In this document: positions 4,871-30,455 of the stretch, in pieces
Numbering within the stretch: position 1 is the first letter of the stretch
Layout: every line of letters starts with the position of its first letter
Notes under the pieces: model-generated
Told to the model about the DNA's origin: nothing
What the model saw: the letters and a program-made list of their open reading frames with translations, nothing else
The model's database searches: none
Assembly (NCBI RefSeq): GCF_016127575.1
Contig: NZ_CP066019.1
Coordinates: 2,520,001 to 2,552,000, forward strand
DNA: 32,000 nucleotides
Source of the DNA: Cupriavidus necator
GTDB lineage: Bacteria; Pseudomonadota; Gammaproteobacteria; Burkholderiales; Burkholderiaceae
Direction of reading: 5' to 3'
Made by a program: the position numbers and the translations under genes

Positions 4871-4921
4871 GGGCAGCCCCGGCCTGGCATGCTGAGCCTT
4901 CGCGCCGAGGCTGCCGGACCT

Positions 4922-6808: not shown

Positions 6809-6817
6809 GGGGTGGGG

Positions 6818-7492
6818 TCACAAGGACTTGAGCAGGCCCAGCTTGGCCGCCTCGAACACGGCCTCGCCGCGCGAGCGCACTGCCAGCTTGCCGTAGATGT
6901 TCTTGATGTGCGATTGCACGGTATGCACGCTCAGCCCCAGATAGCGGGCAGTCTCGGCATAGGTATAGCCGCGCGAGATCAGGTCCAGGATCTCGTTCTC
7001 GCGCACCGACAGCACCACGGCGCCGGTGGCCGCGGCATCGCGCGCAACCGCCTCTGCCGGCGCGCCGCGCAGCCGGTTCACCACCTGCCGCGCGATCAGC
7101 GGGCTCATCGGCGAGCCGCCCGCGCGCAGTTCGCCGATGGAGGCGGCGATGCGGTCCGTGGTTTCGTCCTTGAGCAGGTAGCCGATGGCGCCCGCCTCGA
7201 TGCTGGCCAGCACGTGGTGGTCGTCGCCGAACACCGTGACCACCATGCAGTCGCAGGCGGGATAACGTTCGCGCGCGGCGCGGATCACGTCGATGCCGCT
7301 GCCGTCCGGCAGGCCGAGGTCGCACAGCAGCACGTCGGGCTGGTGCTGCGCCAGCCAGGCCAGGGCCTCCGCCGCGCTGGCGGTGCAGCCTGCCACCACG
7401 GTGGCCGGCGCATGCATCTCGACGGCCTGCACCAGGCGGCTCAGCGCCGCCGGGTCATCCTCCACGATCAGGACACTAGTTGTGCTTGCCAT
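6818..7492 (-). CDS. NarL/LuxR-family response regulator
   Basis: C-terminal 224 aa of ORF 6818..8014, from the ATG at 7492 (MASTTSVLIVEDDPAALSRL). Receiver domain with DLGLPDGSG, plus a C-terminal LuxR HTH (LSVRENEILDLISRGYTYAETARYLGLSVHTVQSHIKNIYGKLAV). Confidence 0.9.
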   Translation of the reverse strand: MASTTSVLIVEDDPAALSRLVQAVEMHAPATVVAGCTASAAEALAWLAQHQPDVLLCDLGLPDGSGIDVIRAARERYPACDCMVVTVFGDDHHVLASIEAGAIGYLLKDETTDRIAASIGELRAGGSPMSPLIARQVVNRLRGAPAEAVARDAAATGAVVLSVRENEILDLISRGYTYAETARYLGLSVHTVQSHIKNIYGKLAVRSRGEAVFEAAKLGLLKSL

Positions 7493-7864
7493 GCCTGTCT
7501 CTTCCCGAGCCATGCCGTTGTGCCGCCCGTTGCGCCGGGCACGACGGCGGATTCTGACATATCCGTCCGCACCAAGGACGGCCGCGCGGCCTCCCTCAGG
7601 GTAAACGCCGCCGCCCCCACCCATCGCACAGTCTGCCGCGGTTTCCCATCCCATATTCTGGGGAGGCGCCTGAATCCACCTGCCCCTATGATCCGGCAAA
7701 ACAGCCCAATCAGCCGCAGCCAGCAGTGCGGGCAACAAGACAGGCAAACAAGCGGGAATACGGGGAAGACCACCGTGACACATAAGACAGCCGGCACACC
7801 GGCCGCACGGGAAATCGGGCATGCAAGGGGGGAGCCCGCAGGCGCCATCCCGGCAACGGCCGCG

Positions 7865-8497
7865 GTGCGGCTGGCTGCCGGGATGGCCGCGTGCGGGCTG
7901 GCGGCGTTGCTGGCCGGTTGCCTGGCCACCGCACCGAACACGGCCGGCGTGGCCGCCATGGAGCTGGACGTCAGCCGCAAGGGCCCGGTGTCCGGCGTCG
8001 GCCTGGACGGTCACGACATCGTGGCCATGGCTGACCAGATGATGCGCGACATCCTGGCGCAGCCGCGTTTTGCGCCGGGCAAGGATGGCAAGCGCCCGCG
8101 CATCGCCCTGGACAGCGCCAACTTCATCAACGACAGCTCACAGCCGCTGGACCGGCAACTGATCGTGGACCGGCTGCGGGTCAGCCTGAACCGCGCCGCG
8201 CAATCCCGCATCCAGTTCGTCAGCGCGCAGACTGCCCTGGTCGAACGCGAGCGCCAGGCCAAGCGCAGCGGCGCCACCGATGCCGGCACGCTGGGCCTGA
8301 CCCGCGCGCGCATCGGTGCCGACTACAGCCTGTCCGGGCGCATCGGCTCGCTCGACAGCCGCAGCGCCGCCACCGGCATGGTGCAGCGCTACATGCAGAT
8401 CTCCTTCGAGCTGGTCGAGGTCGAATCGGGCGAGCTGGTCTGGAGCAACATCTATGAATTCCAGCGCGCCGCGGCCGACGATGTGGTCTATCGGTAG
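7865..8497 (+). CDS. LpoB-like (COG3417) outer-membrane lipoprotein
   Basis: Only the 3' end of the 1202-aa ORF 4889..8497 looks coding. An in-frame GTG at 7865 gives a textbook lipoprotein signal, (M)RLAAGMAACGLAALLAGC. Alternative starts are the ATG at 7883 and the GTG at 7775. The mature part (DIVAMADQMMRDIL...RIALDSANFINDSSQPLDRQLIVDRLRVSLN...YSLSGRIGSLD...YMQISFELVEVESGELVWS) matches my memory of the LpoB/YcfM fold family. Confidence 0.7.
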   Translation: MRLAAGMAACGLAALLAGCLATAPNTAGVAAMELDVSRKGPVSGVGLDGHDIVAMADQMMRDILAQPRFAPGKDGKRPRIALDSANFINDSSQPLDRQLIVDRLRVSLNRAAQSRIQFVSAQTALVERERQAKRSGATDAGTLGLTRARIGADYSLSGRIGSLDSRSAATGMVQRYMQISFELVEVESGELVWSNIYEFQRAAADDVVYR

Positions 8498-16859: not shown

Positions 16860-17312
16860 TTACTCCAGCACGCGCATCGTCCGCTCGCCGTCCGGTGCCA
16901 ACTGATGCAGCACTTTGCCCTTGAAAACGGTGGCCTTCAGATCGTCCAGCACGTCCTTGGCGCCACCATAAGGGGCGAACACGTCGATCAGGAACGCCTT
17001 GTCGCCCGACTTCCAATCCCCGGGCGCCAATTGGTACGGCGGCATGGCAAACCGCTCGACCACAGCGTCGGAGAGGTAGGCCCAGGTCACGAAGGCTGTG
17101 GGCATTTCACCCCGCATGTACAGCTTGGCCTGCTCCAGGATCAGCGGCGGCATCACGCGCCACTCCAGGTCAGCGAAGAAGCTGTGGCGCGTCGTTGGAT
17201 TGTTCATCATCAGCCAAGACACCGGGCCCAGCAGCGGGATCTTCTTGATCACGCGCTGCGCTTGCTCGGCAGCAAACTTCATCAGCTGTTCGTTGTCGGT
17301 CGGAATAGTCAT
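16860..17312 (-). CDS. RTX toxin-activating lysine acyltransferase (HlyC/CyaC/RtxC family)
   Basis: 150-aa ORF. It aligns by eye with E. coli HlyC. LGPVSWLMMNNPTTRHSF matches LGHVSWLWASSPLHRNW. MPTAFVTWAYLSD matches YPVAYCSWANLSL. GDWKSGDKAFLIDVFAPYGG matches [20 protein letters not shown]. The His and Asp that are catalytic in HlyC appear to be present. Its start overlaps the TolC stop (ATGA). Confidence 0.9.
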   Translation of the reverse strand: MTIPTDNEQLMKFAAEQAQRVIKKIPLLGPVSWLMMNNPTTRHSFFADLEWRVMPPLILEQAKLYMRGEMPTAFVTWAYLSDAVVERFAMPPYQLAPGDWKSGDKAFLIDVFAPYGGAKDVLDDLKATVFKGKVLHQLAPDGERTMRVLE

Positions 17313-18591
17313 TGGATACTTGTCCTGGGTTGTTTCATGCCGGCAGCAGCGGGCATGGCAGGCACTGCCGGTGTTTCCTGCTGCGCATTGTTGGTCAGCA
17401 GCGCATTCACTCCCTGGACATCCGCCTCAGTCAGCGTGCCGGCCGCCGCCTTCAGCCGCATGCCTTGCAGGATAGTGTCGTAGCGTGCCTTTGCGAGATC
17501 ACGCTGCGCCGCAAAGAGTTGCTGCTCGGCATTGAGCACGTCGATGTTCACGCGCGTGCCGATCCGGTAGCCAATTTTGTTGGCATTGACCGAATCCAGG
17601 CTCGACGTGACCGCAGAAGTCAGCGCCTCGACCTGGGACAGGCCACTCGTCACACCACCATAGGCTTGCCGTGCCTGCGTCGCCGCCTGGCGTCGCGCCG
17701 CTTCCAGCTCCGCGCGCGACTTGTACCGATTGGCGATTGCCTCAGTCACGCGCGAGTTGACGGCGCCGCCCTGGTAGATCGGGATCGTCAGCTGCAGCCC
17801 GATGGTGCCGGACTTGACCCGGTTCTCGATGTCCGCGGGCGAGGTCATCGAACCTGAGGTGTAGTTGTTGCCATAGCCAGCCGTGAAGTCCAGTGTCGGC
17901 AGGTGCGCCGCGCGGTTCCTGGACACCTCTTTCTCGGCAACTTCGACCGCTGCCAACTGCGTGCGCACTTGCGGGTTGTTCTCCCGCGCGTGACCCATCC
18001 AGGCATTGACATCCTTCGGCTCGGGACCCGGCAGGGTCACGTCAGCCTTCAGGCCCGCTACAGGCTCGGGCAATGGCCCGACCAGCCGTTCGAGTTCCGC
18101 CTGCTTCGCCTCCTGATCGTTGAGCGCCTGCACCAGCTGCGAGCGCCCAAGGTCGTGGCGGGACTGCGACTCGTATACATCGGTAATGGTCGCCTCGCCC
18201 ACGTCGTAGCGACGCTTGGCAAGCACACGCTGCTGCTCCACTGCCCGCAATTGCGCCCTGGCAACTGTCACGCTGTCGCGCGCGGTCAGCAGATCGAAGT
18301 ACGCCTGCGAGGTGCGCAGGATCAGGTCGCTCTCGGCCTGGGCGAACTGTCCTGGCGATTGCCGTTGCCGTTCAGGTTGATCGAGGGCAGCACGCCGGCG
18401 CGAGCCTGCAGCAGCTTCTCGCGTCCGGCCTCCAGCGCGTAGCGTGATGCCTCGAAGGTTGGGTCGCCCCCCTGCGCCATCCTGTAGACCGACAGCAGGT
18501 CGATGGCGCTGGCCTGGCTCGGGACAAGAGCGCCGACCGCGGCCAGCGCAGCCACAGCAGCGCTGGTCAAATCATGCATGCGCACCATCAC
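17309..18591 (-). pseudogene. tolC: TolC-family outer-membrane channel, apparently internally deleted and frameshifted
   Basis: Two ORFs in different frames. ORF 18591..18322 carries a signal peptide plus DLLSVYRMAQGGDPTFEASRYALEAGREKLLQARAGVLPSINLNGNGNRQ, then runs out of frame to a stop. ORF 18271..17309 carries the rest of TolC. That second frame stays open and TolC-like upstream to about 18349 (QFAQAESDLILRTSQAYFDLLTARDSVTVARAQL). About 40 aa are missing at the junction near 18350-18357. Confidence 0.6.
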
Positions 18592-19925
18592 CGCTCCCGC
18601 AAGGCTTCATCCTTGTAGCGCATCAGCGGCGACAGGAAGTAGGAAATCATGCGGCGTTGGTCCACGCGGATATCCGCGGTCACGCTCATCCCCGGGGTCA
18701 ACGTCCCCTTGCGCCCATTGACTGAGTTCGGCGTGGCCATCGTGTCGAGCTTGATGCGCACAGGATAGATGGGGCCAAGCTTCTGATCATTGATGGCGTC
18801 GGTACCCACCCACTGCACTTCGCCCTCGATATATCCGAAGCGGGTGAAGTCAAAGGTTTCCACCTTGGTAATGACCCGCTGGCCGCGCTTCACGTAGCCG
18901 ATGTCCTTGTTCTGCACCTGAGCATCCACTTCCAGTGCAGTGTTCTCGGGCACCACGATCGCCACCGGCTGCGCCTGGGTCACCACGCCGCCAACGGTAG
19001 TCACCGCCAGTTGCTGGACGATGCCGTCGATCGGTGCGCGCAGCGTCTGCAGGTCACGCCGCATCGTTGCCTTGACCAGCTCCAGCTCGGCCGTGGCAGA
19101 CTTGCGGCTTTCCTCGGCCAGCTCTGCCGCATGCCGTGCGCTGAACTCTGCCACCGCCTGTGCGCGCTGCTGCTGCGCGGCGTTGAGGCCCGCGCCAGCT
19201 TCGGCCAGCCGGTTGGTCTGCAGAGCCAGTTCCTTCCTGAGGTTGATCAGCTCCAGCCGCGTCTCGATCAGGCCGGTTTCGGCGATATGCCCGGTCTTGA
19301 CGAGTTCCTCGCGCATGTCGTTCTTCTTGCTGACAAGCGGCAGGCTGGCGCGGATCTGCTCCAGACTGGCAGCGGCCCCTTCCCGGTCGGCACGCTTGCG
19401 GGCAATTTCAGCGTCGAGCGCCGCCAGCCTGGCGCGTTGTTCGGCCAGCGCGCTGGTGAGCAGCGCCTGCTGCGTCCGGGCGATATCCGCAGGCAAGCCT
19501 TCGACGGCCTGCATGGTGGGCTTGCCGTCGAGAAGCGCAGTCAGCCGTCGCACCCCGGCTACGGCCTCCCATTGATCGCGCTGCAGCCGGTCACGGTCTG
19601 CTGCAGTGGTGGTCGGGTCGAGTTCGACCAGGATGTCGCCAGCCTTGACCTTCTCACCGTCGCGCACATGGATCTCGCGTACGATGCCGGCTTCGAGCGG
19701 CTGCACCACCTTGGACTTGCCCGAGGGAATGACTTTTCCCTGCGCGGAGACCACCACGTCCATTTTCGCCATCGTGGCGTAGACCAGCGCAAGGACGGCC
19801 ATACCGCAGATACTGCCAGCGACGATCCGTGCCATGCGCGCGGGACGGCGGTTGGCGATGCCCATGGCGGCCGTGGCAAAGGCATCGGCTGCCGCTTGCT
19901 GGTCAGGCTTCATCGGCTCAGACAT
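18588..19925 (-). CDS. HlyD-family type I secretion periplasmic adaptor
   Basis: Lies in ORF 18588..19988. The ATG at 19925 gives MSEPMKPDQQ. One TM helix (IVAGSICGMAVLALVYA), a lipoyl-like motif (GKVIPSGKSKVVQPLEAGIVREIHVRDGEKVKAGDILVELD), a long coiled coil, and the C-terminal HlyD signature (GMSVTADIRVDQRRMISYFLSPL). It overlaps the hlyB-like stop by 8 nt. Confidence 0.9.
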   Translation of the reverse strand: MSEPMKPDQQAAADAFATAAMGIANRRPARMARIVAGSICGMAVLALVYATMAKMDVVVSAQGKVIPSGKSKVVQPLEAGIVREIHVRDGEKVKAGDILVELDPTTTAADRDRLQRDQWEAVAGVRRLTALLDGKPTMQAVEGLPADIARTQQALLTSALAEQRARLAALDAEIARKRADREGAAASLEQIRASLPLVSKKNDMREELVKTGHIAETGLIETRLELINLRKELALQTNRLAEAGAGLNAAQQQRAQAVAEFSARHAAELAEESRKSATAELELVKATMRRDLQTLRAPIDGIVQQLAVTTVGGVVTQAQPVAIVVPENTALEVDAQVQNKDIGYVKRGQRVITKVETFDFTRFGYIEGEVQWVGTDAINDQKLGPIYPVRIKLDTMATPNSVNGRKGTLTPGMSVTADIRVDQRRMISYFLSPLMRYKDEALRER

Positions 19926-22113
19926 GAGCGGCTCCCGGCAACGGTTGCACAGGGGCCTTGTGCTTGATAGTGAGGGTTTCCAGCACACGCGACGCCTCGA
20001 ACAAGGCGCGATACTTGCCCTCGCCAGTGATCAGGTCAGTGTGATGGCCTTGCTCGACCAGTTGCCCGCCATCGAGCACCAGGATGCGGTCGGCCAGGCG
20101 CAGCGTGGAGAGGCGGTGCGCGACGATAAAGACGGTGCGGCCCGCACAGATCTTCTCGAGGTTGTCGTGGATGACGCGCTCAGACTCGTAGTCCAGGCTG
20201 GCGGTGGCCTCATCGAGCAGCAGCAGGCGCGGGTTGGTCGCAAGCGCCCGCGCGATGGCGATGCGGGCGCGCTGGCCGCCCGACAGCAGGCTGCCGCGCT
20301 CACCGATCACGGTGTCGTAGCCTTGGGGCAAGGCATTGACAAAATCGTGTGCCCCGGCCAGCTTGGCGGCTGCCATCACGGCCTCCAGCGACAGGCCCGG
20401 ATCGGAGATGGCGATGTTGTCGCGCACCGACATGTTCATCAGCGCGGCGTCCTGCGACACCACGCCTACCTGGCTACGCAGCCAGGCTGTGTCCACCGTC
20501 GCCAGGTCGAGCCCGTCGATCGTGACCGTTCCACCAGTGGGTGAGTAGAGGCGCTGCAACTGGCGGATCAGCGTCGTCTTTCCGGCACCAGAAACGCCGA
20601 CAACGCCCACGACTTCCCCAGCGGGGATGGAAAAGGAGACATCCGACAGCACTTGGGCGCCGTCGGCCTGATAGGCAAAGCTCACCCGGTCGAAGCGGAC
20701 AAAGCCCTGAATCGCTGCCCGTTGGGTCTGGTCCGAAAGCTGGCCCGCCTCGGCCGGCGTATCCATGATGCCGCCCAGCCGCCTGACCGCCACGCGCATC
20801 TGCTGGAATTCCTGCCACAGCGACGAGAGCTTGATGATCGGTGCATTGACCCGGCCCGACAGCATGTTGAAAGCAATCAGCCCGCCCACGGTGAGGTTGC
20901 CGTCGATCACCTGCATGGCACCGACGCCCAGCAGCACCACGGTCAACACCTTGCTGGTCAGATTGATGACCTGGTTGGTCCAGTTGCCGGTATGGCCCGA
21001 TTCGAATGCGGCTACCGCGTAGCGCACCAGCCGGCTTTCCCAGCGGCGCTGCCAGTTGGCTTCAACGGCCTGACCCTTGAGGGTCTCCATCGCGCCGATG
21101 GTCTCCACCAGGAACGCCTGATTGTCGGCGCCCAGTGCGAACTTGTCTTCCAGCTTCTTGCGCAGGATCGGGCTGATCACATACGACGCACCAAAGAAGA
21201 TCGGCAGGAAGCAGATCACGATAATGGTCAGGAGCGGGCTGTAATAGAACATGACCGCCAGGAACACCAGCGCGAAGAACAGGTCCAGCCAGGCGGTCAG
21301 CGCCTGCCCGGTCAGGAAGTTGCGCGCCGTCTCCAGTTCGCGCATCGAAGCCATCACGTCACCGGCGCGGCGCGAGTTGAAGTACGACATCGGCAGGCGC
21401 ATCAGGTGCCGGAACAGGCGCGCGCCCAGTTCGACATCGACGCGATTGGTCGTATGGGTGAGCAGGTACTGGCGCAGGCCATTCAGCATCGCCTCGAACA
21501 GCGCCACGCCAGCCAGGGCCACCAGCATCACGACCAGCGTCGCCTGCGAGCGGTGGGCCAGCACCTTGTCGATCACGACCTGGAAGGCAAGCGGCGTCAC
21601 CAGTGCAAAGAGTTGCACGACGAACGATGCCAGCAAGACTTGGGTGAGTTCGGTTTTGTACTTCTTGATGGCCTGCCAGAACCATGCAAAGCCGAACGCC
21701 GAGGTGCCGGCATTGGCCGTGCCATCGGTCAGGGATGCCACGCTGCGGCCGGCTTCGATCCAGGTATTGGCGAACTCGCCGGCGAACGCCGCCGCTGGCA
21801 CTGCCTGCGGTGGCTGGTCCGGGTCCCGCTGCACGTGGACGACATCGGCATCCACCTTGCCGACCAGCACAACCCGGCCACTGCGGGTCAGGGCCAGCGC
21901 GGGCAATGCTGCGCGACGCAGCTTGTCCACCCCGCCCTCGACCAACCTGGCGTCGAAGCCAAGGTCATCCAGGCCCCACAGCAGCCGGCTGGCGTCAAAG
22001 TCATCACGCACGTCCCAGCGGCGTGCGAGGCCCTCGGGATCGGCCTTGACCTCATGCAGGCGCGCGAATACGGCAAGCATGCCAAGATTGGGCAGTGTTG
22101 GCTTCCGATTCAT
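19918..22113 (-). CDS. type I secretion ABC transporter (HlyB family) with N-terminal C39-like domain lacking the catalytic Cys
   Basis: 731-aa ORF with a six-TM exporter core. Walker A is GVSGAGKTTL, the ABC signature is LSGGQRARIAIARAL, Walker B is LLLLDEATASLD and the H-loop is IVAHRLST. The first ~125 aa (LAVFARLHEVKADPEGL...) resemble the C39-like domain and contain no cysteine. Confidence 0.95.
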   Translation of the reverse strand: MNRKPTLPNLGMLAVFARLHEVKADPEGLARRWDVRDDFDASRLLWGLDDLGFDARLVEGGVDKLRRAALPALALTRSGRVVLVGKVDADVVHVQRDPDQPPQAVPAAAFAGEFANTWIEAGRSVASLTDGTANAGTSAFGFAWFWQAIKKYKTELTQVLLASFVVQLFALVTPLAFQVVIDKVLAHRSQATLVVMLVALAGVALFEAMLNGLRQYLLTHTTNRVDVELGARLFRHLMRLPMSYFNSRRAGDVMASMRELETARNFLTGQALTAWLDLFFALVFLAVMFYYSPLLTIIVICFLPIFFGASYVISPILRKKLEDKFALGADNQAFLVETIGAMETLKGQAVEANWQRRWESRLVRYAVAAFESGHTGNWTNQVINLTSKVLTVVLLGVGAMQVIDGNLTVGGLIAFNMLSGRVNAPIIKLSSLWQEFQQMRVAVRRLGGIMDTPAEAGQLSDQTQRAAIQGFVRFDRVSFAYQADGAQVLSDVSFSIPAGEVVGVVGVSGAGKTTLIRQLQRLYSPTGGTVTIDGLDLATVDTAWLRSQVGVVSQDAALMNMSVRDNIAISDPGLSLEAVMAAAKLAGAHDFVNALPQGYDTVIGERGSLLSGGQRARIAIARALATNPRLLLLDEATASLDYESERVIHDNLEKICAGRTVFIVAHRLSTLRLADRILVLDGGQLVEQGHHTDLITGEGKYRALFEASRVLETLTIKHKAPVQPLPGAAHV

Positions 22114-22277: not shown

Positions 22278-25200
22278 TCATGACGGTTGGCCCATGCCCA
22301 AGTCCACCGCGCTGGCCTGTGCGGCGCGGTCCATCATTTCGGCAAGGGTGTCCTCACGCGGAGGGACAAAGCCGCCAGGGGCCTGAGACCCATCGGCCGT
22401 CGTCAGCAGCTTGTTCCACTGGAGGCAACTCCATTGCACGGCTTCCGCGCTGTGCGGCGGATAGGGACAAGCTGAAGATGGCGTCTCGGCGGTGGCGAGC
22501 AGCTGTGCCACGGCGTCGGCGGCAAAGGCAGCATCGATCGGCTCGTTCGGCGCGATTCCCTGCTGGACCTCTTCCAGGTACAGGGCGAAGCCGGGCAGCG
22601 GCACATCCTTGCCAGCGAACATCACGTCTGCGGCCTCACTCTTGCTGCCATCGGTGTGCGTGACCTCCACCGTGCCGAACACGACGTTGCCATGATCGAG
22701 GTGGGCCTCGCCCTGTCGCTGGAGTGCGATGGAGGCAATGCCAGCCTGATCCAGTGTCTTGTGCTCGGCCTCGCTGAACTCGCCATTGCCATTGACGTCC
22801 TGCACTACCTTGAACTGGCTCCAGGCAGCGTCTTCCTTGCTGATCCTGCCGTCGCCATTGGTGTCGAAGGTGGCCAGCGCCTCAAGGTCTGTCTTCGTGC
22901 CGGGCGCGAAATTGGTCAGGCGCGTCTCTTCCACAATGATCTTGCCGTCGCCGTCGGCATCGAAGCCTAGTACGCCGTCGGTCGCGGCGGCCCATCCGAT
23001 TTGCTCAGGCTGGCCGTCATGATTCGCGTCGGCCCTGACGTTGGATTGATCCGCCGCTAGCAACTCCACGCCGTTGCCATTCAGGTCTATCACGAGGGGC
23101 GTGTAGCCGCCACTTGCATTGGTGCCCTTGTGGGTAGCGTTAATCACCACGTCCATGAATGCCCCCTGAGCATCGGCAATACGGATGGTGAAGGCGTCAG
23201 TACCGGTGTAAGGGTCTCCCGCATGGCTCTCGTACTGCCAGTTGGCATAGCGGCTGACGAGCTCACCTGAGTGTTCAAAGCCATATTCGGTTTCCCGATA
23301 GGTGTTGGCATAGGCGTAACCGTGTTGCGGCGCCTGAACAATCGATATGACAATGGCCGCTGTATCGCCATCTGGATCGTAGGCAATGATCCGGCCCGTT
23401 TCTCTTCGGGGATCATTGGCGGGGACAAGAACCCGATCTGACTCATAGCTTGCCCCCGCGAAAAAGTAGTCGCCATCCATCTGGTCTAGTGCCAGTGGCT
23501 TGAGCATGCCATTCTGATAGTGCGATGGTGTATAAGGCCGCCCGCCGGCATCAAACAGTTGGCCTTGCAAGTTCAGCGACAAGGCCAGTGCTTCGTCATA
23601 GACTGGCTGAAAGACAGGGCCATCACTGTATACATACTGCCCGGCAGAGCCCGCACCTGCACCCGGAGCAGCCTTGCCCACCACGACCGGCGGGCCGACG
23701 TAATACCCAAAGATGGCGCGACCATACTCGACGGACTCGATGATCGGCGCCTTGTTCACATGCTCAACATGCAGGAAGGCCGTGGCCCAGGTCTGCCCTC
23801 CGTAGGGATCGGACACCAGGTACTGAAAGGACGCTTGCCCATAGAAGTCGTGGTCAGGCGTGAACCGGACTTGGCCATCGGCCTGGATCTCGACCGTACC
23901 GTGCTGCGCATTGGCAACCTGGGTGACTGCGAGCGCGTCGCCATCCGGGTCCGCGTCATTGGCAAGAAATTGCGCCGTATTGATGACGAACGGCGTGTTC
24001 TCATAGCCCGAGAAGCCATCATCAACCGCGACCGGTGTCGTGTTGATCTTCTCCAGGTTGATGGTCGTGGTCGCCATGGCAAAGCCGCCTACACCATCCG
24101 AGATGGTGTAGGTGAAGTGGCCTTGTGCACCCGGGTAGCCGCCAAAGCCAGGCTCCGGCAGGAAGGTCACCGAGCCGTCCGCATTCAGTCGCACAGTGCC
24201 GTGCTCGGCCCCGGACACGCCCACAATGCGCAGATCGCCATGCGGGTTGTCGATGTCGAAGTCATCCGCCAACAAGGCCGCCGCGGTCAGCGTAATGGCC
24301 ACGCCCCTGCGTCCGTCCACGATATTGTCATTGGCGATCGGCGCATCATTGACTGGCGCCACGTGAATAGTCGCCGTCGCGGTCGAGACGCCCCCCACGC
24401 CATCGCTCACTTCATACGTGAAACTGGCATCACCAAAGAAATTTGGATCGGGCACAAAACGGATGGTCCCGTCCGGGTTCAGCGACACGGTACCGTGCGT
24501 GGCGCCGTTGACGCGGGTGATGGAAAGCGCCTCCGGTGGGTTGTCCACATCCGTATCATTGGCAAGCAGTGCGGCGACATCTATGGTCAGCGCGGTGTCC
24601 TCGTTGCTCGCAATCACATCGTCGCGCAGCCGCGGAGCATCATTGACGGGAGCCAAGTCAATGTCCACCCGCCCGGTGGTGATGGCGCCGTGCGGGTCCG
24701 ACACGGTGTATTCGAAGCTGGCGGCACCGAAGTAATCCGCTTCCGGGATAAAGGTGACGGCTCCGTCGGCATTCAGACGCACTTCGCCGTGCTGGGCGTT
24801 GCCGACCGCTACCAGCGTGAGCGTGGCTTGCGCATCGTCCACGTCCCGGTCATTGGCAAGCAAGCTGGCCGCGGTGAAGGCCGCTACCTCGTCCTCATTG
24901 CCACGGAAGTCCTCGCCAGTCACGATCGGCGCGTCATTGACCGGCGCCAGATCGACCGTGGCCATCGCCTCGGTATAGCCGCCCGCGCCGTCGTAGACGG
25001 TGTAGAAGAAGGTCGCGGTGCCGAAGAAGTCCTGCTCCGGCACGAAGCGGATCTGTCCTTCGGGGGTCAGCTCGACCGTGCCGTGCTGGCCGTTGCGCAC
25101 CGAGAACACGGTCAGGTCCGAGTGGGGGTTATCCACGTCCCAGTCGTTGGCCAGCAGCGTCGCCTGCTCGATCAGCAGTATGGTGTCCTCGTCGGTGGCG

Positions 25201-28200
25201 ACGGTTTCACCCGCCACCACCGGCACGTCATTGACGGGGCGGATTTCGAGGTTGACGGTAGCGGGCGTCAAGCCGCCGTTACCATCCGACACCCAGTAGA
25301 CAAAGCTGGCCGGCCCGAAGTAATCCTGGTCAGGCAGGAAGCGCACGTTGCCGTGGGCATCGAGGGCCACCAGGCCGTGCGTGGCATTCGAAACACGCAG
25401 GATGCTCAGCACGTCGCCGATGGTGGGCGTATCCACATCGAAATCGTTGGCAAGCAGCTGTCCCGAGGTGAACAGCAGGCCGGTATCTTCATCGAAAGCG
25501 GCCGTTTCACCGGCAGTGACCGGCGCATCATTGACCGGCGCAATGTCCAAGTAGACGCGGCCAGTCGCCTGCAGGCCATACTCATCCTCGACGGTGTAGC
25601 GGAAACGCGCCGGCCCCCAATAGTCTGGGTCAGGGGTGAACACAATGCGCTGGCTGCCGTCGGGCAGCAGTGTCAGGGTCACCGTGCCATTCTCGCCGCC
25701 GTAGACGTTGATCAGGCGCAGTGGCTGGGTCAGGACGTCGCGCGAGGTATCGTTGGCCAGCAGCACTGCCGCATCGATGGCATAGCGCGTGTCCTCGATG
25801 CCTGCGACCTGCTCATCGGCTACGTCCGGCGCGATGATCTGAATATCCTCGCCGTTCGGCCCAGCTGCCACGCGGCCGGGCGTTGTGGTCAGGATCGTAT
25901 CGTCACTTGCGGCATCGTAATTGACACCAACCGCCGGCACTGATCTGATCAGATCCAAAGTGACTTCGACTGGCGACCCGAGCGTTGCCTCGCTGCCAAC
26001 CGGGCGCGTCGCCGGTGGCAAGGCGTTGACTGGCACCTGTACAAAGGGCGGCTGAGCCACAGTCGGTTGCGGCTGGTCCGGCGAATCAACCGTCGTTCCA
26101 AGTTCCACCGGCAGGCGGCTGATGGTGTTGTTGCCGGTTGTATCGATAGCGGGGGCTGGCGCATCAGGCTGCCCGCCACCTTCTGCCGCGTTGGCAACGC
26201 CGGTCACGGCACCCGCCGCGACACCCAGCAGCGCGCCGGTGCCCGCAAACAGGCTGTCGCTGCTCTTGATCCACTGATCGCGGATCGCAGCGAAGGCATC
26301 AGTTGGGCTAGCTGGCGGAGCGCTGGTAACACGGCCGTCCGCCGGGCGCACCGTGTCAGTACGCTGCGCAGGCCTGCCGGGATTTGGGTCCTTCGAGGTC
26401 AGGCGGCTGTCATCCGGCTCGACACGGGTGGCAGTAGCCCGCCCGACCGGGGTCGTGCCCTCGCCATCAGCCACGCGGTCATCGCCAGCGACGATCGCGT
26501 CTTCGGCAAGCGTCTGCTCGTGCTGCTTGTCGCTGGCGGTTTTGATGCGACTGTCGCCTTCGGCAACTTGCATCTCAGCGCTGGCGTCTTCCAAGGCTAC
26601 GCCGCCATGGGTATGGCCAGCTTCGCCCGTGTAATCATGAGTGACGACGGCATTCAGGACCGTCTCGCCGCCTTCCTTCGCGTGCAGCATGCCGGCAAAG
26701 GCATCGAGCCGGCCATCGCCGTCCGTGTCCACAAACGCCACCTGATAGGCGTCGCCGCGCACATCCGCTGTCAGGTGGTGCTCGGTGACCATCATGACGC
26801 TGCCATCGGCGGCGCGCAGGACGGGTGGCGTGCTGGTGAAATCCAGGCTGGCGATACCCCGGTCGAGGAACGATGCGAACTCGCCCTGATCGGTCTGGCC
26901 GTTGCGGTTAACGTCCAGCCAGATGCCCAGGGCGGCAAAGGCCGGGTCGGAAGTGTCCAGCTTGCCGTCGTGGTTGACATCGAGCCATTGCACGCTGTTG
27001 CGGGCATGGGCGGCGGAGGCATCCGGGTCGTTGGTCAGGATCTCGTTCTGCCCGATCCTGCCATCGCCGTTCACATCGATGGAGAGGATGCCCTGGTTGG
27101 CGTTCACCCAGTCCGTCTGCTCGATGTAGCCGTCCAGATCGACGTTCTTGCCGATCCGGCCAGGGTTCACACCTGCAGGCAGTTCCGGCTTCAGGTCGAC
27201 CGTCAGCGCAGTAAAATGCTGGCGGATGCCGTCAGCGTCTGCCTCAGGCATGCCTGCGTCGGCCTTAGCCTCATGCCAATCCGGGCTGTGCAGTTGCAGG
27301 CCAGCTCGCGACCGGTTCTCTTCAATGCTGCCCGTTGCCGGAGCAGTGACGACGCCAGATTCGCGCATGTGGGCGAGCACCGATTCCGCTTCCCAGGCCG
27401 GGACGATGGCAGCGAACGCCTGCTGCATGAACTGCTGCGCAATGGTCGCCTGGCTGGTGTCATAGCGCAAACCAGCGCCATCATAGTAGCGTCTCTGCTC
27501 CTGGCCGTTGTCGTCGATCCACTTGAGATACAGCTGACCGCCGTTATCGTTCAGGCGCGCCCCATCAGGATCGAAGAGATAGCCGATGGTCGGCAGGCGC
27601 TGTGGAATGATGGCGTAAAGTGGGTTGCCGTTGGCATCCACCTGCTGGGCAAGCGACACCTGCAGGGCGTCGATCAGGCTTTGCAGGATGTTGGCAGGCG
27701 TCGCGCCGCCGTCCTCGGCATCGGTGGTCTTGAGCACGTGAATGCTGCCGTCCGGATTCCACACAGCGGTGGCTTCACCTTCTAGCGTCGGAAGATCCTT
27801 TGCGGACAGCATTGAGCCGATCATTGTCACGGCGATAGCCGCGAAGGCAACAGGTGGGCAATAGGAGGTATAGCCTGCCACCGTCATGCCCGCAGCGATG
27901 GTACTCAGTGCCGCCCCGGCAACCTGATACTCATTGCCATCCTCGATGGCCATTACCAGCGTGACAATGCTTGCGACCAGCGCCAGCCCACCAGCAATCT
28001 GCCCTGTCGTCGCAGCGCTATCCAGCAGAGTGCCAGCGGATGCCGACTCAGCCTGGAATGCAACAATTCCTTGTTCCTTGAGCGCGTTGGCGTAGATGGC
28101 TGCCGCCTGGCTGCCGAGGTTGGTACTGGCAGCAGCGATGCCCAGTCCGTTGCCGTCTTGAATGGCGTTGAACAGGTTCAGGCCAGCAGCGAGGGCATTC

Positions 28201-29558
28201 AGTCCGACGCCGACGCCATCGGGCAAAAGTTTGCCGCTGCCGAGGCGATCCAGATTGATCAGCATCGCTGCGCTGGCGGCCACAATCGCCTTCGTGTCGC
28301 CGGATTCGATTGCCTGGATCAGGGACAGCATGCTTTGGACGCTGCCAAGCGCGTCCACAGGGCTTATTGCCTCTGGCACGGGTGTGGGCTGCGAGTCAGG
28401 CCGCGTATCATGCTCGTCGAATGGCAGACCACCGATAGCTGGGCCTGTCAGGTCCAGCTCACCGCCTGCGCTAACAGTGACCATCTCACCATGCAAGCCA
28501 GTAAGGCGGACATTACCGTCGTCGGTTGCCACAGTAGCAAGCACATTGCGCTGCCCATCCACCAGCACTAGTGTGCCGTCTCCGAGAGTGTAGAGGGTAA
28601 CGTCCCTGCCATAGAGATGCTCAATGGTGCCTTGCCAGTGGGCGGCCCGCTCAGCAAAAGCCTGATGTTGAGCGGCAAGCATTTCCTCTGTAGGCGTAGC
28701 TGCATCGGAATGCGTGCCACTATGGTCAGCAAGCTGAATGCGATCCCCACCAAGCCCAGCTAGCGCATTGCCAACACCGATAGCGCCGCGGGCGTCCGAG
28801 AACGGCAACCTATCGAGCAATTGCTTGAATTGATCTTGGACATGACTGCCAATTTCCCGCAAGGTATTGGCTGCATCCACTCCCATGGATTCGAAGAAGC
28901 CTGCCTGGTCGATTCGACCAACAGCATCCATGAAATTCTGCAACTCTTTCCCGGACGCTATGCCCGGTGCCTTTTCCAGCCAATCGCTTGCCATGGCGCG
29001 CACCACCGGATCAGGCGAGGTCGATGCGCCGTACATGAACGCCAGCGTGGCGGTGTTGGCCGCAAGTGCGTCGCTGTAACCACCACCCGTGTCGCGCAGC
29101 ATGCTCCAGAACCGCTCGACTTGTGCCGGGCCACCCATTTTCTCCATCAGGCGGAAGGGGGTATCTAGGGTCCAGGCGGAAGGGGGAAGACCATTGTCTT
29201 TGAAGACCTGGCGGTGAAAGTTCCAGACTTCCCTGCTATCGATGTCACGTGTGACAGGCAGACTACCGTCGATAGTCTGTTGATACAGCGCATCAAGATA
29301 GCCTTTTGCCATGTCCAGCTTAATCTTCTCAACCTGCGCCCCAGTCAACGGCCTCCCCAGGTCCTTGGCAGTGTTGTGCATATACGTCAGCGCTGAGGCG
29401 CCGGCGATACTAGTGGCGTCGGCCACACCACCGGCCCAGCCTGAGTACTTGTATCCGTAGCCTTCGAGCCGGCTATAGACTTGCGACGGAGTAAGCGTGC
29501 CTGCGTTAAGCTGAAACCTAATATCTTTCAACGACCGTGCAGATATCGGATTTGGCAT
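22278..29558 (-). CDS. giant (2426 aa) T1SS substrate: putative acylated pore-forming toxin or adhesin with cadherin-like repeats and DxDxDG calcium modules
   Basis: Single uninterrupted ORF immediately upstream of the hlyB/hlyD-like genes. Hydrophobic Gly/Ala-rich region at aa ~400-590. Seven ~99-aa repeats with the pattern PVNDAP...EDT...LLANDxDVD...HGTV...DG...F.P...YFG.ASF.Y.VSDG.GG. Two modules rich in DVNGDG, DVNHDG, DTDGDG, DADGDG and DTNGDG motifs. No N-terminal signal peptide. Acidic overall, with a 111-aa C-terminal tail. Confidence 0.9.
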   Translation of the reverse strand: MPNPISARSLKDIRFQLNAGTLTPSQVYSRLEGYGYKYSGWAGGVADATSIAGASALTYMHNTAKDLGRPLTGAQVEKIKLDMAKGYLDALYQQTIDGSLPVTRDIDSREVWNFHRQVFKDNGLPPSAWTLDTPFRLMEKMGGPAQVERFWSMLRDTGGGYSDALAANTATLAFMYGASTSPDPVVRAMASDWLEKAPGIASGKELQNFMDAVGRIDQAGFFESMGVDAANTLREIGSHVQDQFKQLLDRLPFSDARGAIGVGNALAGLGGDRIQLADHSGTHSDAATPTEEMLAAQHQAFAERAAHWQGTIEHLYGRDVTLYTLGDGTLVLVDGQRNVLATVATDDGNVRLTGLHGEMVTVSAGGELDLTGPAIGGLPFDEHDTRPDSQPTPVPEAISPVDALGSVQSMLSLIQAIESGDTKAIVAASAAMLINLDRLGSGKLLPDGVGVGLNALAAGLNLFNAIQDGNGLGIAAASTNLGSQAAAIYANALKEQGIVAFQAESASAGTLLDSAATTGQIAGGLALVASIVTLVMAIEDGNEYQVAGAALSTIAAGMTVAGYTSYCPPVAFAAIAVTMIGSMLSAKDLPTLEGEATAVWNPDGSIHVLKTTDAEDGGATPANILQSLIDALQVSLAQQVDANGNPLYAIIPQRLPTIGYLFDPDGARLNDNGGQLYLKWIDDNGQEQRRYYDGAGLRYDTSQATIAQQFMQQAFAAIVPAWEAESVLAHMRESGVVTAPATGSIEENRSRAGLQLHSPDWHEAKADAGMPEADADGIRQHFTALTVDLKPELPAGVNPGRIGKNVDLDGYIEQTDWVNANQGILSIDVNGDGRIGQNEILTNDPDASAAHARNSVQWLDVNHDGKLDTSDPAFAALGIWLDVNRNGQTDQGEFASFLDRGIASLDFTSTPPVLRAADGSVMMVTEHHLTADVRGDAYQVAFVDTDGDGRLDAFAGMLHAKEGGETVLNAVVTHDYTGEAGHTHGGVALEDASAEMQVAEGDSRIKTASDKQHEQTLAEDAIVAGDDRVADGEGTTPVGRATATRVEPDDSRLTSKDPNPGRPAQRTDTVRPADGRVTSAPPASPTDAFAAIRDQWIKSSDSLFAGTGALLGVAAGAVTGVANAAEGGGQPDAPAPAIDTTGNNTISRLPVELGTTVDSPDQPQPTVAQPPFVQVPVNALPPATRPVGSEATLGSPVEVTLDLIRSVPAVGVNYDAASDDTILTTTPGRVAAGPNGEDIQIIAPDVADEQVAGIEDTRYAIDAAVLLANDTSRDVLTQPLRLINVYGGENGTVTLTLLPDGSQRIVFTPDPDYWGPARFRYTVEDEYGLQATGRVYLDIAPVNDAPVTAGETAAFDEDTGLLFTSGQLLANDFDVDTPTIGDVLSILRVSNATHGLVALDAHGNVRFLPDQDYFGPASFVYWVSDGNGGLTPATVNLEIRPVNDVPVVAGETVATDEDTILLIEQATLLANDWDVDNPHSDLTVFSVRNGQHGTVELTPEGQIRFVPEQDFFGTATFFYTVYDGAGGYTEAMATVDLAPVNDAPIVTGEDFRGNEDEVAAFTAASLLANDRDVDDAQATLTLVAVGNAQHGEVRLNADGAVTFIPEADYFGAASFEYTVSDPHGAITTGRVDIDLAPVNDAPRLRDDVIASNEDTALTIDVAALLANDTDVDNPPEALSITRVNGATHGTVSLNPDGTIRFVPDPNFFGDASFTYEVSDGVGGVSTATATIHVAPVNDAPIANDNIVDGRRGVAITLTAAALLADDFDIDNPHGDLRIVGVSGAEHGTVRLNADGSVTFLPEPGFGGYPGAQGHFTYTISDGVGGFAMATTTINLEKINTTPVAVDDGFSGYENTPFVINTAQFLANDADPDGDALAVTQVANAQHGTVEIQADGQVRFTPDHDFYGQASFQYLVSDPYGGQTWATAFLHVEHVNKAPIIESVEYGRAIFGYYVGPPVVVGKAAPGAGAGSAGQYVYSDGPVFQPVYDEALALSLNLQGQLFDAGGRPYTPSHYQNGMLKPLALDQMDGDYFFAGASYESDRVLVPANDPRRETGRIIAYDPDGDTAAIVISIVQAPQHGYAYANTYRETEYGFEHSGELVSRYANWQYESHAGDPYTGTDAFTIRIADAQGAFMDVVINATHKGTNASGGYTPLVIDLNGNGVELLAADQSNVRADANHDGQPEQIGWAAATDGVLGFDADGDGKIIVEETRLTNFAPGTKTDLEALATFDTNGDGRISKEDAAWSQFKVVQDVNGNGEFSEAEHKTLDQAGIASIALQRQGEAHLDHGNVVFGTVEVTHTDGSKSEAADVMFAGKDVPLPGFALYLEEVQQGIAPNEPIDAAFAADAVAQLLATAETPSSACPYPPHSAEAVQWSCLQWNKLLTTADGSQAPGGFVPPREDTLAEMMDRAAQASAVDLGMGQPS
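23745..25826 (-). repeat. seven diverged in-frame tandem repeats of ~297 bp (cadherin-like domains)
   Basis: The reverse complement of the PVNDAP codons (..catcattgac..) recurs at about 24350, 24650, 24938, 25230 and 25530. Degenerate copies lie near 24040 (INTTPV) and 23750 (VNKAP). This corresponds to aa 1245-1938 of the giant ORF. Confidence 0.85.
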
Positions 29559-29570
29559 GAGCAGACCGTC

Positions 29571-30455
29571 TTATCGCTGTTGAAGAGTAGGCGTGGCGGC
29601 GGGCTCGCCGGGCTGCACCCGGAAACCTAGGATCAATTCACGTGCCTTACGTTCGTATTCCATCCACTGACTCAACGTACGGGCATCGTATTGGAGATTC
29701 ACTTCGGCCTTCATTGAGGGATAGAGAGAAAAGCGATGGATGCAGACATTGCGCGGACTTTCCTCGAACGGCTCCCCATTTGCGTTGCATTCAATGAATG
29801 ACACGTCCTTGCCATCATTCGTAAAGAAGAACAGGCGATCCCTCGATACAACAGGACCACTCGGATAACGCACAATCTCTTCGGATCTGTACTCGGCTAG
29901 TCCATAGCGTGTCTCGGGCTGCCGGTCGTATCGCCTATTGCGGAACCTGGCAAGCCCCTTAACTGTGACATGCTGATCGTAGGGATTGCCTAGCACCATC
30001 TTTTCTTTATGTACGTTCAGTGATTGATTGGCGCTCACCCCAATCGGCAGCCATTCCTCTGGCCCCTCCATCGACTTCTGCGCTCGGTAGTAACTTGCCT
30101 CGTTCGCCGCCGTCCTCGGCGCAAAGTCCGGCAGATGCACCATCAGGGGTAGTGAATTGATCTTCGAAGCAAAGGTGCGCACCGGCGCCTTCCAGTTGCG
30201 ACGCTCTGGATCAAATACACTCGGATCTCCTTCGTACTCGGTCACCAAGTGGGTGTAGTTCAGCGGGACGGAAACCGGCACACCGCCAAGGTCACCAATA
30301 ATCGGATCACGTCCCCGTGGAAGATCAAAGGGACCGGCCCATGCAGCCAAGCGCGCATTAATGGCCACCATAGCAACTGCAATGAGCAGCAACATAGGCG
30401 CCGCATACATCAGGCAGCGGCGAACTGATCGTTTCATTGATGAACTATTCAACAT
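29571..30455 (-). CDS. membrane-anchored protein of unknown function, first gene of the T1SS locus
   Basis: 294-aa ORF (an alternative ATG lies at 30437) in a ~47-48% GC stretch where chance ORFs of this length are unlikely. One N-terminal TM/signal-anchor: RRCLMYAAPMLLLIAVAMVAINARLAAWAG. The remainder is hydrophilic with mixed charge. Its stop lies 12 nt before the toxin ATG. I recognise no family. Confidence 0.6.
   Translation of the reverse strand: MLNSSSMKRSVRRCLMYAAPMLLLIAVAMVAINARLAAWAGPFDLPRGRDPIIGDLGGVPVSVPLNYTHLVTEYEGDPSVFDPERRNWKAPVRTFASKINSLPLMVHLPDFAPRTAANEASYYRAQKSMEGPEEWLPIGVSANQSLNVHKEKMVLGNPYDQHVTVKGLARFRNRRYDRQPETRYGLAEYRSEEIVRYPSGPVVSRDRLFFFTNDGKDVSFIECNANGEPFEESPRNVCIHRFSLYPSMKAEVNLQYDARTLSQWMEYERKARELILGFRVQPGEPAATPTLQQR

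Follow-up and report, generated by a model that had tools for sequence, protein, structure and literature searches.

In FrpC from Neisseria meningitidis and in the Actinobacillus protein ApxIVA, both 'clip-and-link' substrates of type I secretion systems (T1SS), an N-terminal domain of unknown function is followed by a self-processing module (SPM), and in Neisseria a co-transcribed upstream gene encodes an exported or lipoprotein partner, FrpD, for which tight binding to the N-terminal part of FrpC has been shown. FrpD binds residues 1–414 of FrpC with a dissociation constant of about 0.2 nM, and neither of the two proteins has a known function (PMC5233953). CyaA of Bordetella and the HlyA-type cytolysins are exported by HlyB/HlyD/TolC and come with an acyltransferase of the HlyC/CyaC family, and the order of parts in CyaA is an enzyme head, a hydrophobic helical region, a conserved segment and a calcium-binding region. 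The polymorphic toxins of the CdiA/CdiB/CdiI and Rhs types share a conserved body for delivery, a bounded variable toxin domain and a neighbour gene that co-varies with it, and truncated units also occur as orphans. In the 2012 survey of polymorphic toxins a C-terminal toxin domain is part of the definition, and type I secretion is mentioned solely in connection with the export of large RTX toxins; it is normally not counted among the routes of interbacterial polymorphic toxins. The present work concerns 32,000 nucleotides of Cupriavidus necator DNA (contig NZ_CP066019.1, positions 2,520,001–2,552,000; below, the window), in which an operon of the T1SS type encodes a presumptive secreted protein of 2426 residues, here called the giant. 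The giant is encoded at 22278..29558, and all coordinates given for the operon refer to the minus strand. From comparison with related proteins and loci we find it fairly likely that the giant is the exported part of a T1SS polymorphic toxin system, most likely an antibacterial one, with the usual layout reversed.

Judged by alignment with its relatives, the N-terminal head of the giant (residues 1–330; 28569..29558), predicted to be mostly helical, is an exchangeable cassette that co-varies with the gene upstream. When the giant is aligned with relatives that carry other heads, conservation starts sharply at about residue 402, and upstream of this point there are lipase-like domains in P0001 and P0002 and two further unrelated domains in P0004 and P0006; at least eight head groups are found on the same chassis, the conserved unit made up of the hydrophobic region and residues 591–790 of the giant. 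The head type of the giant is shared only with P0003, P0005, P0015 and an orthologue in C. oxalaticus (73% identity), and P0005 carries this head on a FrpC-like body with an SPM and RTX repeats and without the hydrophobic chassis. The locus L002 (1516-6662) encodes the same head and partner as the window together with the P0005 body, has no HlyC gene, and the SPM of its protein starts with Thr-Pro. The same head and partner are thus present both with the chassis body and with the FrpC-like body of L002, indicating that the cassette moves between two T1SS carrier types. Domains with matches in the heads of the relatives are Peptidase_M23 (9e-12), NlpC/P60 (1.3e-5, above the cut-off), Lipase_3 (1.4e-5 in P0002, above the cut-off) and a Tle1-like phospholipase (3.8e-4, below the cut-off), and metallopeptidase-like heads with an HExxH motif were spotted by eye in two relatives. 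Peptidoglycan hydrolase, lipase and phospholipase activities are typical of envelope-targeting antibacterial effectors. The GC content at third codon positions (GC3) is 0.615 in the head and 0.59 in the upstream gene, as compared to 0.70–0.83 for the chassis, the SPM modules and the export genes.

The upstream gene (29571..30455, 294 residues) has its 3' end 12 nt ahead of the giant, and a gene in this position immediately precedes the giant at every locus examined. Residues 7–294 of the product are identical to the C. necator H16 protein E6A55_30860 (288 residues); it starts with a membrane anchor or signal, has no match in Pfam, NCBIfam or the PDB, and shows no similarity to FrpD. Homologues with 54–70% identity (L001, L002 and C. 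oxalaticus) precede every protein with the same head, and an all-against-all BLASTP comparison relates partner products only where the heads are related. This co-variation is seen in three head types, namely that of the giant, the lipase type and the P0006 type: P0002 and P0037 have lipase heads with 41% identity, each preceded by a Sel1-like lipoprotein, with a match of 6e-20 between the two lipoproteins, and the heads of P0006 and P0008 both follow a 285-residue membrane-anchored protein (63% identity). All inspected partners but two begin with a signal peptide, a lipobox or a membrane anchor, the two being that of L009, where the hydrophobic segment lies inside the called open reading frame (ORF), and that of L002, where the call has none; distant homologues of the 294-residue protein likewise begin with an export signal or anchor. 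Truncated units are found at several loci. L003 has a tandem array with the tail of a truncated copy, a partner gene with a head-chassis unit cut at about residue 730, and a partner gene with the next head-chassis unit, the upstream side of L010 shows a cadherin fragment together with small additional genes, and L001 has a further truncated partner paralogue and L004 a partner fragment; no orphan or truncated head-partner unit was seen in the window itself. The 294-residue product is a candidate for the cognate immunity or binding protein of the head, and its best reading is that of an envelope-located immunity protein that would be paired with the toxin.

As far as these comparisons go, the family has the structural marks of polymorphic toxins, i.e. 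a bounded variable domain, a co-varying gene and truncated units, with the differences that the variable domain is N-terminal and that export would be by a T1SS. An exchangeable head with a co-varying upstream gene indicates a polymorphic toxin-immunity system rather than the hybrid of pore-forming RTX cytolysin and giant adhesin that was proposed in an initial annotation of this DNA, made without database searches. Of the parts of that hybrid, the hydrophobic region, HlyC, the T1SS and the repeats are all there, and what could not be found are RTX repeats, the PF02382 domain and retention features of the LapA type. The secretion signals of HlyB-type systems are C-terminal, and such a signal would place the variable toxin domain at the N-terminus and the cognate gene upstream.

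The relatives were collected by an exhaustive phmmer search with residues 395–800 against 1.84 billion cluster representatives, which gave 81 representatives at E<=1e-3, of which 62 reach E<=1e-10. With the modules of the giant mapped onto these matches, about 25 giants of 2000–4484 residues show a common body plan, consisting of a variable N-terminus of 0–840 residues, a hydrophobic region, a signature domain, an SPM, tandem-95 repeats, a divergent domain, a second SPM and a tail; the architecture recurs and is no one-off mosaic. The giant is also not a routine member of an already described adhesin family, and its hydrophobic region is not a mere linker. Full-length relatives have 5–25 tandem-95 repeats and 0–2 GGxGxD motifs, in most of them the divergent domain precedes the C-terminal SPM, and the second SPM is missing in a few, e.g. 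P0009 and P0010. A word-indexed search returned six relatives from Cupriavidus or metagenomes for residues 1–800 and one for the head, and understated the family, which both the exhaustive search and the searches with the partner gene show to be broader; a pattern-limited scan of genome contigs gave one species only. No description of the family was found in full-text literature outside subscription-only journals, and it is apparently undescribed. In P0001 (L005, 3903-7487 and 8457-10075) a lipase-headed toxin is cut at about residue 1014 of the body and continues in-frame into the last ~60 codons of tolC, with HlyC and a Tn3-family transposase gene behind it; this looks like what a deletion has left of an entire operon.

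All nine regions of the initial annotation are present in the giant at the positions it gave, in an intact ORF of 2426 residues. The head is followed by a linker (residues 331–401; 28356..28568), predicted to be beta-rich, with strands at residues 309–343, and then Pro-rich, and by a hydrophobic helical region (residues 402–590; 27789..28355) in which turn motifs of the form A-I-(E/Q)-x-G-(D/N) recur. This region had been noted as nearly uncharged, and the character is borne out: 9.5% of the residues are charged and 59% are G, A, V, L or I, the Kyte-Doolittle average over 19 residues exceeds 1.6 at residues 517–541 (maximum 2.15) and 566–586 (maximum 1.66), indicating a membrane-spanning propensity, and the 190 residues before the signature domain are hydrophobic and poor in charges in nearly all of the 47 family members scored. 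About seven helices are predicted with low confidence (AlphaFold2 model of the chassis from five sequences, pLDDT 39.7, at which nothing but secondary structure is readable). Small-xxx-small motifs of the glycine-zipper kind are not enriched in the region, with 29 as compared to 31 +/- 3.3 in shuffled sequences, and PF02382, the RTX N-terminal domain, was not matched even at E<=10 in scans of the giant by segment. A chassis profile gave nothing significant against the PDB, CyaA fragments included. The best match of that profile, residues 248–350 of the Chelona toxin 9biw at E 0.56 (profile positions 17–111, about residues 410–510 of the giant), was taken as noise; we take this toxin to be diphtheria-like and the matched part to be its translocation domain, the match being probably compositional. 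The hydrophobic region is a candidate membrane-insertion or translocation module. It is followed by the signature domain (residues 591–790; 27189..27788), with the pattern …LP.IGY.YDPDG…LYLKW.D..G..QTRYYDG…, which is the best-conserved part across the family and belongs to no recognised family.

The first SPM-like calcium module (residues ~781–950; 26709..27218) is separated from the repeats by a linker that is acidic and Pro-rich in composition (residues 951–1244; 25827..26708) and contains a short hydrophobic Gly/Ala stretch (residues 1103–1125; 26184-26252) with a Kyte-Doolittle value of 1.71. The seven cadherin-like repeats of the initial annotation (residues 1245–1938; 23745..25826) are recognised by Pfam and NCBIfam as tandem cadherin-like or tandem-95 Ig-like repeats of about 98 residues, with the bounds 1245–1345, 1349–1444, 1448–1543, 1548–1641, 1645–1739, 1747–1838 and 1845–1936; the matches include Cadherin_5 (4e-141) and the tandem-95 model NF012211 (7.7e-144), and Cadherin_5, Big_9, Cadherin_4 and NF012211 each match seven stretches. 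The divergent domain (residues 1939–2150; 23109..23744) has a weak Big_9 match at residues ~2058–2139 and is followed by the second SPM-like calcium module (residues 2153–2317; 22608..23102) and by a tail of about 109 residues (2318–2426; 22281..22607), which is presumed from its position only to hold the type I secretion signal. There is no GGxGxD motif in the 2426 residues, and HemolysinCabind (PF00353) is not matched. With the two closest full-length orthologues the identity is 89–91% in the first SPM, 84–85% in the repeats, 79–83% in the second SPM, 68–73% in the head, 66–68% in the hydrophobic region and signature domain, 52–55% in residues 1939–2150 and 42–45% in residues 1101–1240, and the tail is 43–50% identical to those of orthologues. 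The GC3 of residues 1939–2150 is 0.605, as low as in the head cassette, with about 0.78 in the neighbouring parts, and this together with the lowest conservation of the structured parts suggests separate exchange or diversifying selection; the domain is a candidate for a fast-evolving target-recognition domain. The giant has 39 lysines, 93 arginines and 219 aspartates, and residues 1099–1836 (24051-26264) form a lysine-free stretch of 738 residues. This could be of consequence if the giant is acylated on lysines, and also in view of its SPM-type modules, which in FrpC link to lysines.

The DxDxDG sites, which the initial annotation had assigned to two calcium modules, fall in the clusters 805–949 (805, 828, 860, 882 and 944) and 2158–2259. 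Both modules are present, and they can now be described more closely as homologues of the FrpC SPM without the Asp-Pro bond. In a phmmer search of the PDB the second module (residues 2154–2317) matches the FrpC SPM chain 6sjw at E 1.2e-15 and the first (residues ~807–909) matches the FrpC SPM at 5.4e-10 (2e-14 by BLASTP); a BLASTP comparison of one module with the other gives 2e-13. The key residues of the FrpC SPM are D419/D421/D423/G424 with D456, D462–E474, D499–D511, D521–E532, W451/W519, D478 and D579, and the scissile bond Asp414-Pro415 is required (PMC7078468). These residues were mapped by hand onto the second module from the phmmer alignment to 6sjw. The module has counterparts to all four calcium sites as well as to W451 and D579, with Asp changed to Asn at two positions, the equivalent of W519 is Val, and the D478 region lies inside a four-residue gap. 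At the scissile position the second module has Thr2153-Pro2154, and the first, which starts with FTALTVDLKPEL, has Thr-Ala and a degenerate or lost first calcium site. The residue that precedes the Pro of the second module in family members is T, C, Y, K, A or Q, and in none of them D. Since the Asp-Pro bond is replaced in both modules, they are not expected to cleave themselves as FrpC does, and they may stand in for the RTX beta-rolls as calcium-driven folding units of the giant.

The genes of the operon are in the order partner, giant, HlyB, HlyD, TolC, HlyC. The gap between the giant and the HlyB-type ABC exporter (19918..22113, 731 residues; TIGR01846, 819 bits, above the cut-off, and ABC_membrane and ABC_tran) is 164 nt, and the exporter is followed by the HlyD-type periplasmic adaptor (18588..19988, 466 residues; TIGR01843, 368 bits, above the cut-off). 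The gene for the TolC-family outer-membrane channel (17309..18591) is disrupted: TIGR01844 is matched above the cut-off at model positions 131–412 only, the gene is in two reading frames by a frameshift, and tblastn with intact homologues from related loci shows that about 37 codons are gone, corresponding to reference residues ~94–130. In this strain the gene has probably become a pseudogene, and this may be why automated scans call no complete T1SS at the locus. An additional gene of about 155 codons is present between the giant and the exporter in the distant family loci L008 (10274-10735), L009 (17479-17976) and L012 (10295-10753), and its products are similar to each other with a weak match to GNAT/Acetyltransf_1, which suggests a possible second modifying enzyme.

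The last gene (16860..17312) encodes a 150-residue homologue of the HlyC/CyaC-family lysine acyltransferases, with matches to PF02794 (4.5e-32) and ApxC (4whn, 2e-9), so that the dedicated acyltransferase of the initial annotation is well founded. HlyC is the last gene in six of six chassis-bearing loci that reach beyond TolC (the window, L005, L008, L009, L010 and L012/13) and is absent from the chassis-less L002, which links enzyme and chassis. At the catalytic Asp (…LIDV…) the homologue aligns with ApxC. The giant is probably lipidated by this enzyme. A W-I-K motif with a short hydrophobic stretch, including the adjacent K1098, is conserved in close relatives only.

On this basis the following course of events can be proposed. 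In the cytoplasm the HlyC homologue would acylate at least one lysine of the body, the C-terminal tail would engage the channel of ABC exporter, adaptor and TolC, and the chain would exit with its C-terminus first. Extracellular calcium would fold both non-cleaving SPM modules and the cadherin-like repeats, a role that RTX beta-rolls have elsewhere, and the target cell would be contacted by the repeat rod and the variable domain at residues 1939–2150. The lipidated hydrophobic region and residues 591–790 might then enter the envelope of the target and bring the head through it, much as the enzyme domain of CyaA is transported by the hydrophobic, acylated region of that toxin; the head would damage the envelope and the cognate partner would neutralise it in sister cells. 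Such a system would parallel class IV contact-dependent growth inhibition (CDI), where a HlyC-family acyltransferase has been recruited to an antibacterial toxin: in class IV CdiA it is the receptor-binding domain that CdiC lipidates, which allows the toxin to engage the target outer membrane (PMC8510554). The variable internal domain of the giant could likewise serve as a receptor binder as in the CdiA and Rhs types, from which the giant differs by using a T1SS and not type V or VI secretion, by its N-terminal variable domain, by a partner gene upstream and not downstream, and by the lack of FHA, VENN, PT-HINT and Rhs elements. The heads of the relatives also match type VI secretion effectors of the Tae and Tle kinds (amidase/endopeptidase, Tle1-like and class 3 lipase), and the partners in the family's loci, with signal peptides or lipoboxes and in some cases Sel1-like repeats, resemble the cognate Tai and Tli proteins; the delivery differs, since in the giants the effector is fused to a T1SS body.

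Several observations weigh against the toxin-immunity interpretation. The head of the giant itself has no match in Pfam, NCBIfam or the PDB, and no fold or catalytic motif could be recognised in these databases or by AlphaFold2 with Foldseek; the head model, from an alignment of three sequences, has a pLDDT of 50.5 at which only secondary structure is readable, and Foldseek found nothing in the PDB at E<=0.001, with TM scores <0.2. For the related heads of P0004 and P0010 no similarity between partners was detected, with only 87 partner residues available, and the co-variation as such is equally expected of a binding pair of the FrpD/FrpC anchoring kind. With tolC disrupted, the system may have lost its activity or may need a TolC from elsewhere. 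In the HlyC homologue the catalytic His is displaced by two residues in an ungapped alignment (PTTRH versus PLHRK), with an identical offset in the L005 copy, and there is no conserved lysine column across 17 chassis sequences, the best being K679 with K in nine and R in four, so that the acylation site cannot be named. The known hydrophobic toxins that are activated by HlyC have eukaryotic membranes as their target, and the model gives no account of how a protein released by a T1SS would cross the outer membrane of a Gram-negative target.

Three other explanations were considered. The locus could be a FrpC/FrpD-like surface system or an adhesin, with the upstream product as an anchor in the outer membrane or envelope that binds the head with high affinity and tethers the giant to its producer, and the rod mediating adhesion or biofilm formation. 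This would agree with the two FrpC-type SPM homologues, with the order of a lipoprotein-like gene and a T1SS substrate, which mirrors frpDC, with the same head on the FrpC-like SPM and RTX body of P0005, and with the tandem Ig-like repeats typical of T1SS adhesins, and binding partners co-vary as immunity proteins do. The explanation is nevertheless unlikely in our view, since the peptidoglycan hydrolase and lipase heads of the relatives fit weapons and not anchors, truncated arrays of heads and partners are a hallmark of toxin-immunity diversification, and adhesion leaves the conserved hydrophobic region and HlyC unaccounted for. Moreover, the partner is unlike FrpD or any PDB chain, and the Asp-Pro bond needed to clip and link is missing in both modules and throughout the family. 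Compared to FrpC the giant has Thr-Pro and Thr-Ala in place of Asp-Pro, Val in place of the second Trp of the W451-W519 pair in the second module, and no RTX repeats, and it has in addition the hydrophobic region, the signature domain, the cadherin-like repeats and a HlyC gene. Adhesins of the LapA, SiiE, FrhA and MpIBP types are likewise giant T1SS substrates in which tandem calcium-binding Ig- or cadherin-like repeats are combined with a separate domain close to the C-terminus, but the first 400 residues of the giant contain no AAG and thus no dialanine site, an N-terminal retention module was not recognised, nothing LapG- or LapD-like is encoded by the ten flanking ORFs scanned, and C-terminal RTX repeats are lacking, whereas an exchangeable head, a hydrophobic region and HlyC are present.

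A toxin of the CyaA or MARTX kind directed against eukaryotic cells, for example those of amoebae, fungi, nematodes or plants, in which the acylated hydrophobic region forms pores or translocates the N-terminal effector into the cytosol and the upstream products have some other role, would have to explain M23 and NlpC/P60 heads that target peptidoglycan, which eukaryotes lack, and leaves the head-specific partner genes with their export signals unexplained. RTX repeats of the nonapeptide type are absent, there is no detectable sequence homology to the hydrophobic or acylated segments of the RTX cytolysins, and, different from these, the heads are exchangeable and paired with partners, those of the relatives targeting peptidoglycan or lipids. 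The order of head, hydrophobic region, conserved segment and calcium modules does parallel CyaA, lipase heads could attack eukaryotic membranes, and C. necator is a soil bacterium that faces grazing by protists; also, to our knowledge, every characterised HlyC-family enzyme except CdiC activates toxins acting on eukaryotic membranes. Taken together we consider a eukaryotic target improbable. Less probable still is that the architecture is real and the locus a decaying or inactive, non-functional relic in this strain. The tolC gene is frameshifted with an internal deletion, the orthologue of Cupriavidus sp. IK-TO18 is split into 455 and 2044 residues, and P0001 is a deletion fusion of a toxin gene to the 3' end of tolC beside a Tn3 transposase gene, but the 7.3-kb ORF and the genes for HlyB, HlyD, HlyC and the partner are all intact, the TolC used by T1SS operons is often encoded elsewhere, and the frameshift in IK-TO18 could be an error of a draft assembly.

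The DNA that flanks the locus has 77–82% identity to Cupriavidus chromids. Together with the identity of the partner product to E6A55_30860, this places the window on chromosome 2 of C. necator H16 or in a strain that does not differ from it at the partner gene. In a collection of plasmids and chromids the toxin locus itself was not matched. A scan for promoters and terminators gave counts no higher than expected by chance. Elsewhere in the window, an ORF of 1202 residues on the plus strand (4889-8497) has as its sole Pfam match a C-terminal LpoB domain (1.8e-28), i.e. a peptidoglycan-synthase activator; it far exceeds the length of an ordinary LpoB lipoprotein, and the other ~1000 residues are without explanation. 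A food-safety screen of strain H16, published as a preprint in 2026, reports an RTX-like match with no activation or secretion module nearby. It is not established that this match is the gene of the giant; H16 is an industrial and "power-to-food" strain, and the locus of the giant carries HlyC and HlyB/HlyD genes, though with a broken tolC.

The preferred reading, that of a T1SS polymorphic toxin paired with an envelope-located immunity protein, leads to a wider suggestion, which we hold to be somewhat short of an even chance, that there is a so far unrecognised class of interbacterial weapons in which a HlyC-lipidated T1SS giant with SPM modules in place of RTX repeats delivers exchangeable envelope-degrading N-terminal heads into Gram-negative rivals. 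If this is true, recombination within the chassis-coding sequence would exchange cassettes of head and immunity gene at the 5' end of the toxin gene. It would be the second instance after CdiC/CdiA in which lipidation of the HlyC type has been recruited against bacteria, and SPM domains would have a role in calcium-dependent folding that is independent of self-cleavage. FrpC and FrpD of Neisseria may then share the logic of a toxin and its immunity protein rather than having a role in adhesion, which gives a testable idea for the function of this pair. With its N-terminal head and upstream immunity gene, its own dedicated lysine acyltransferase, and SPM modules that replace RTX repeats and do not cleave, a family of reversed polarity would broaden the view of warfare between bacteria.

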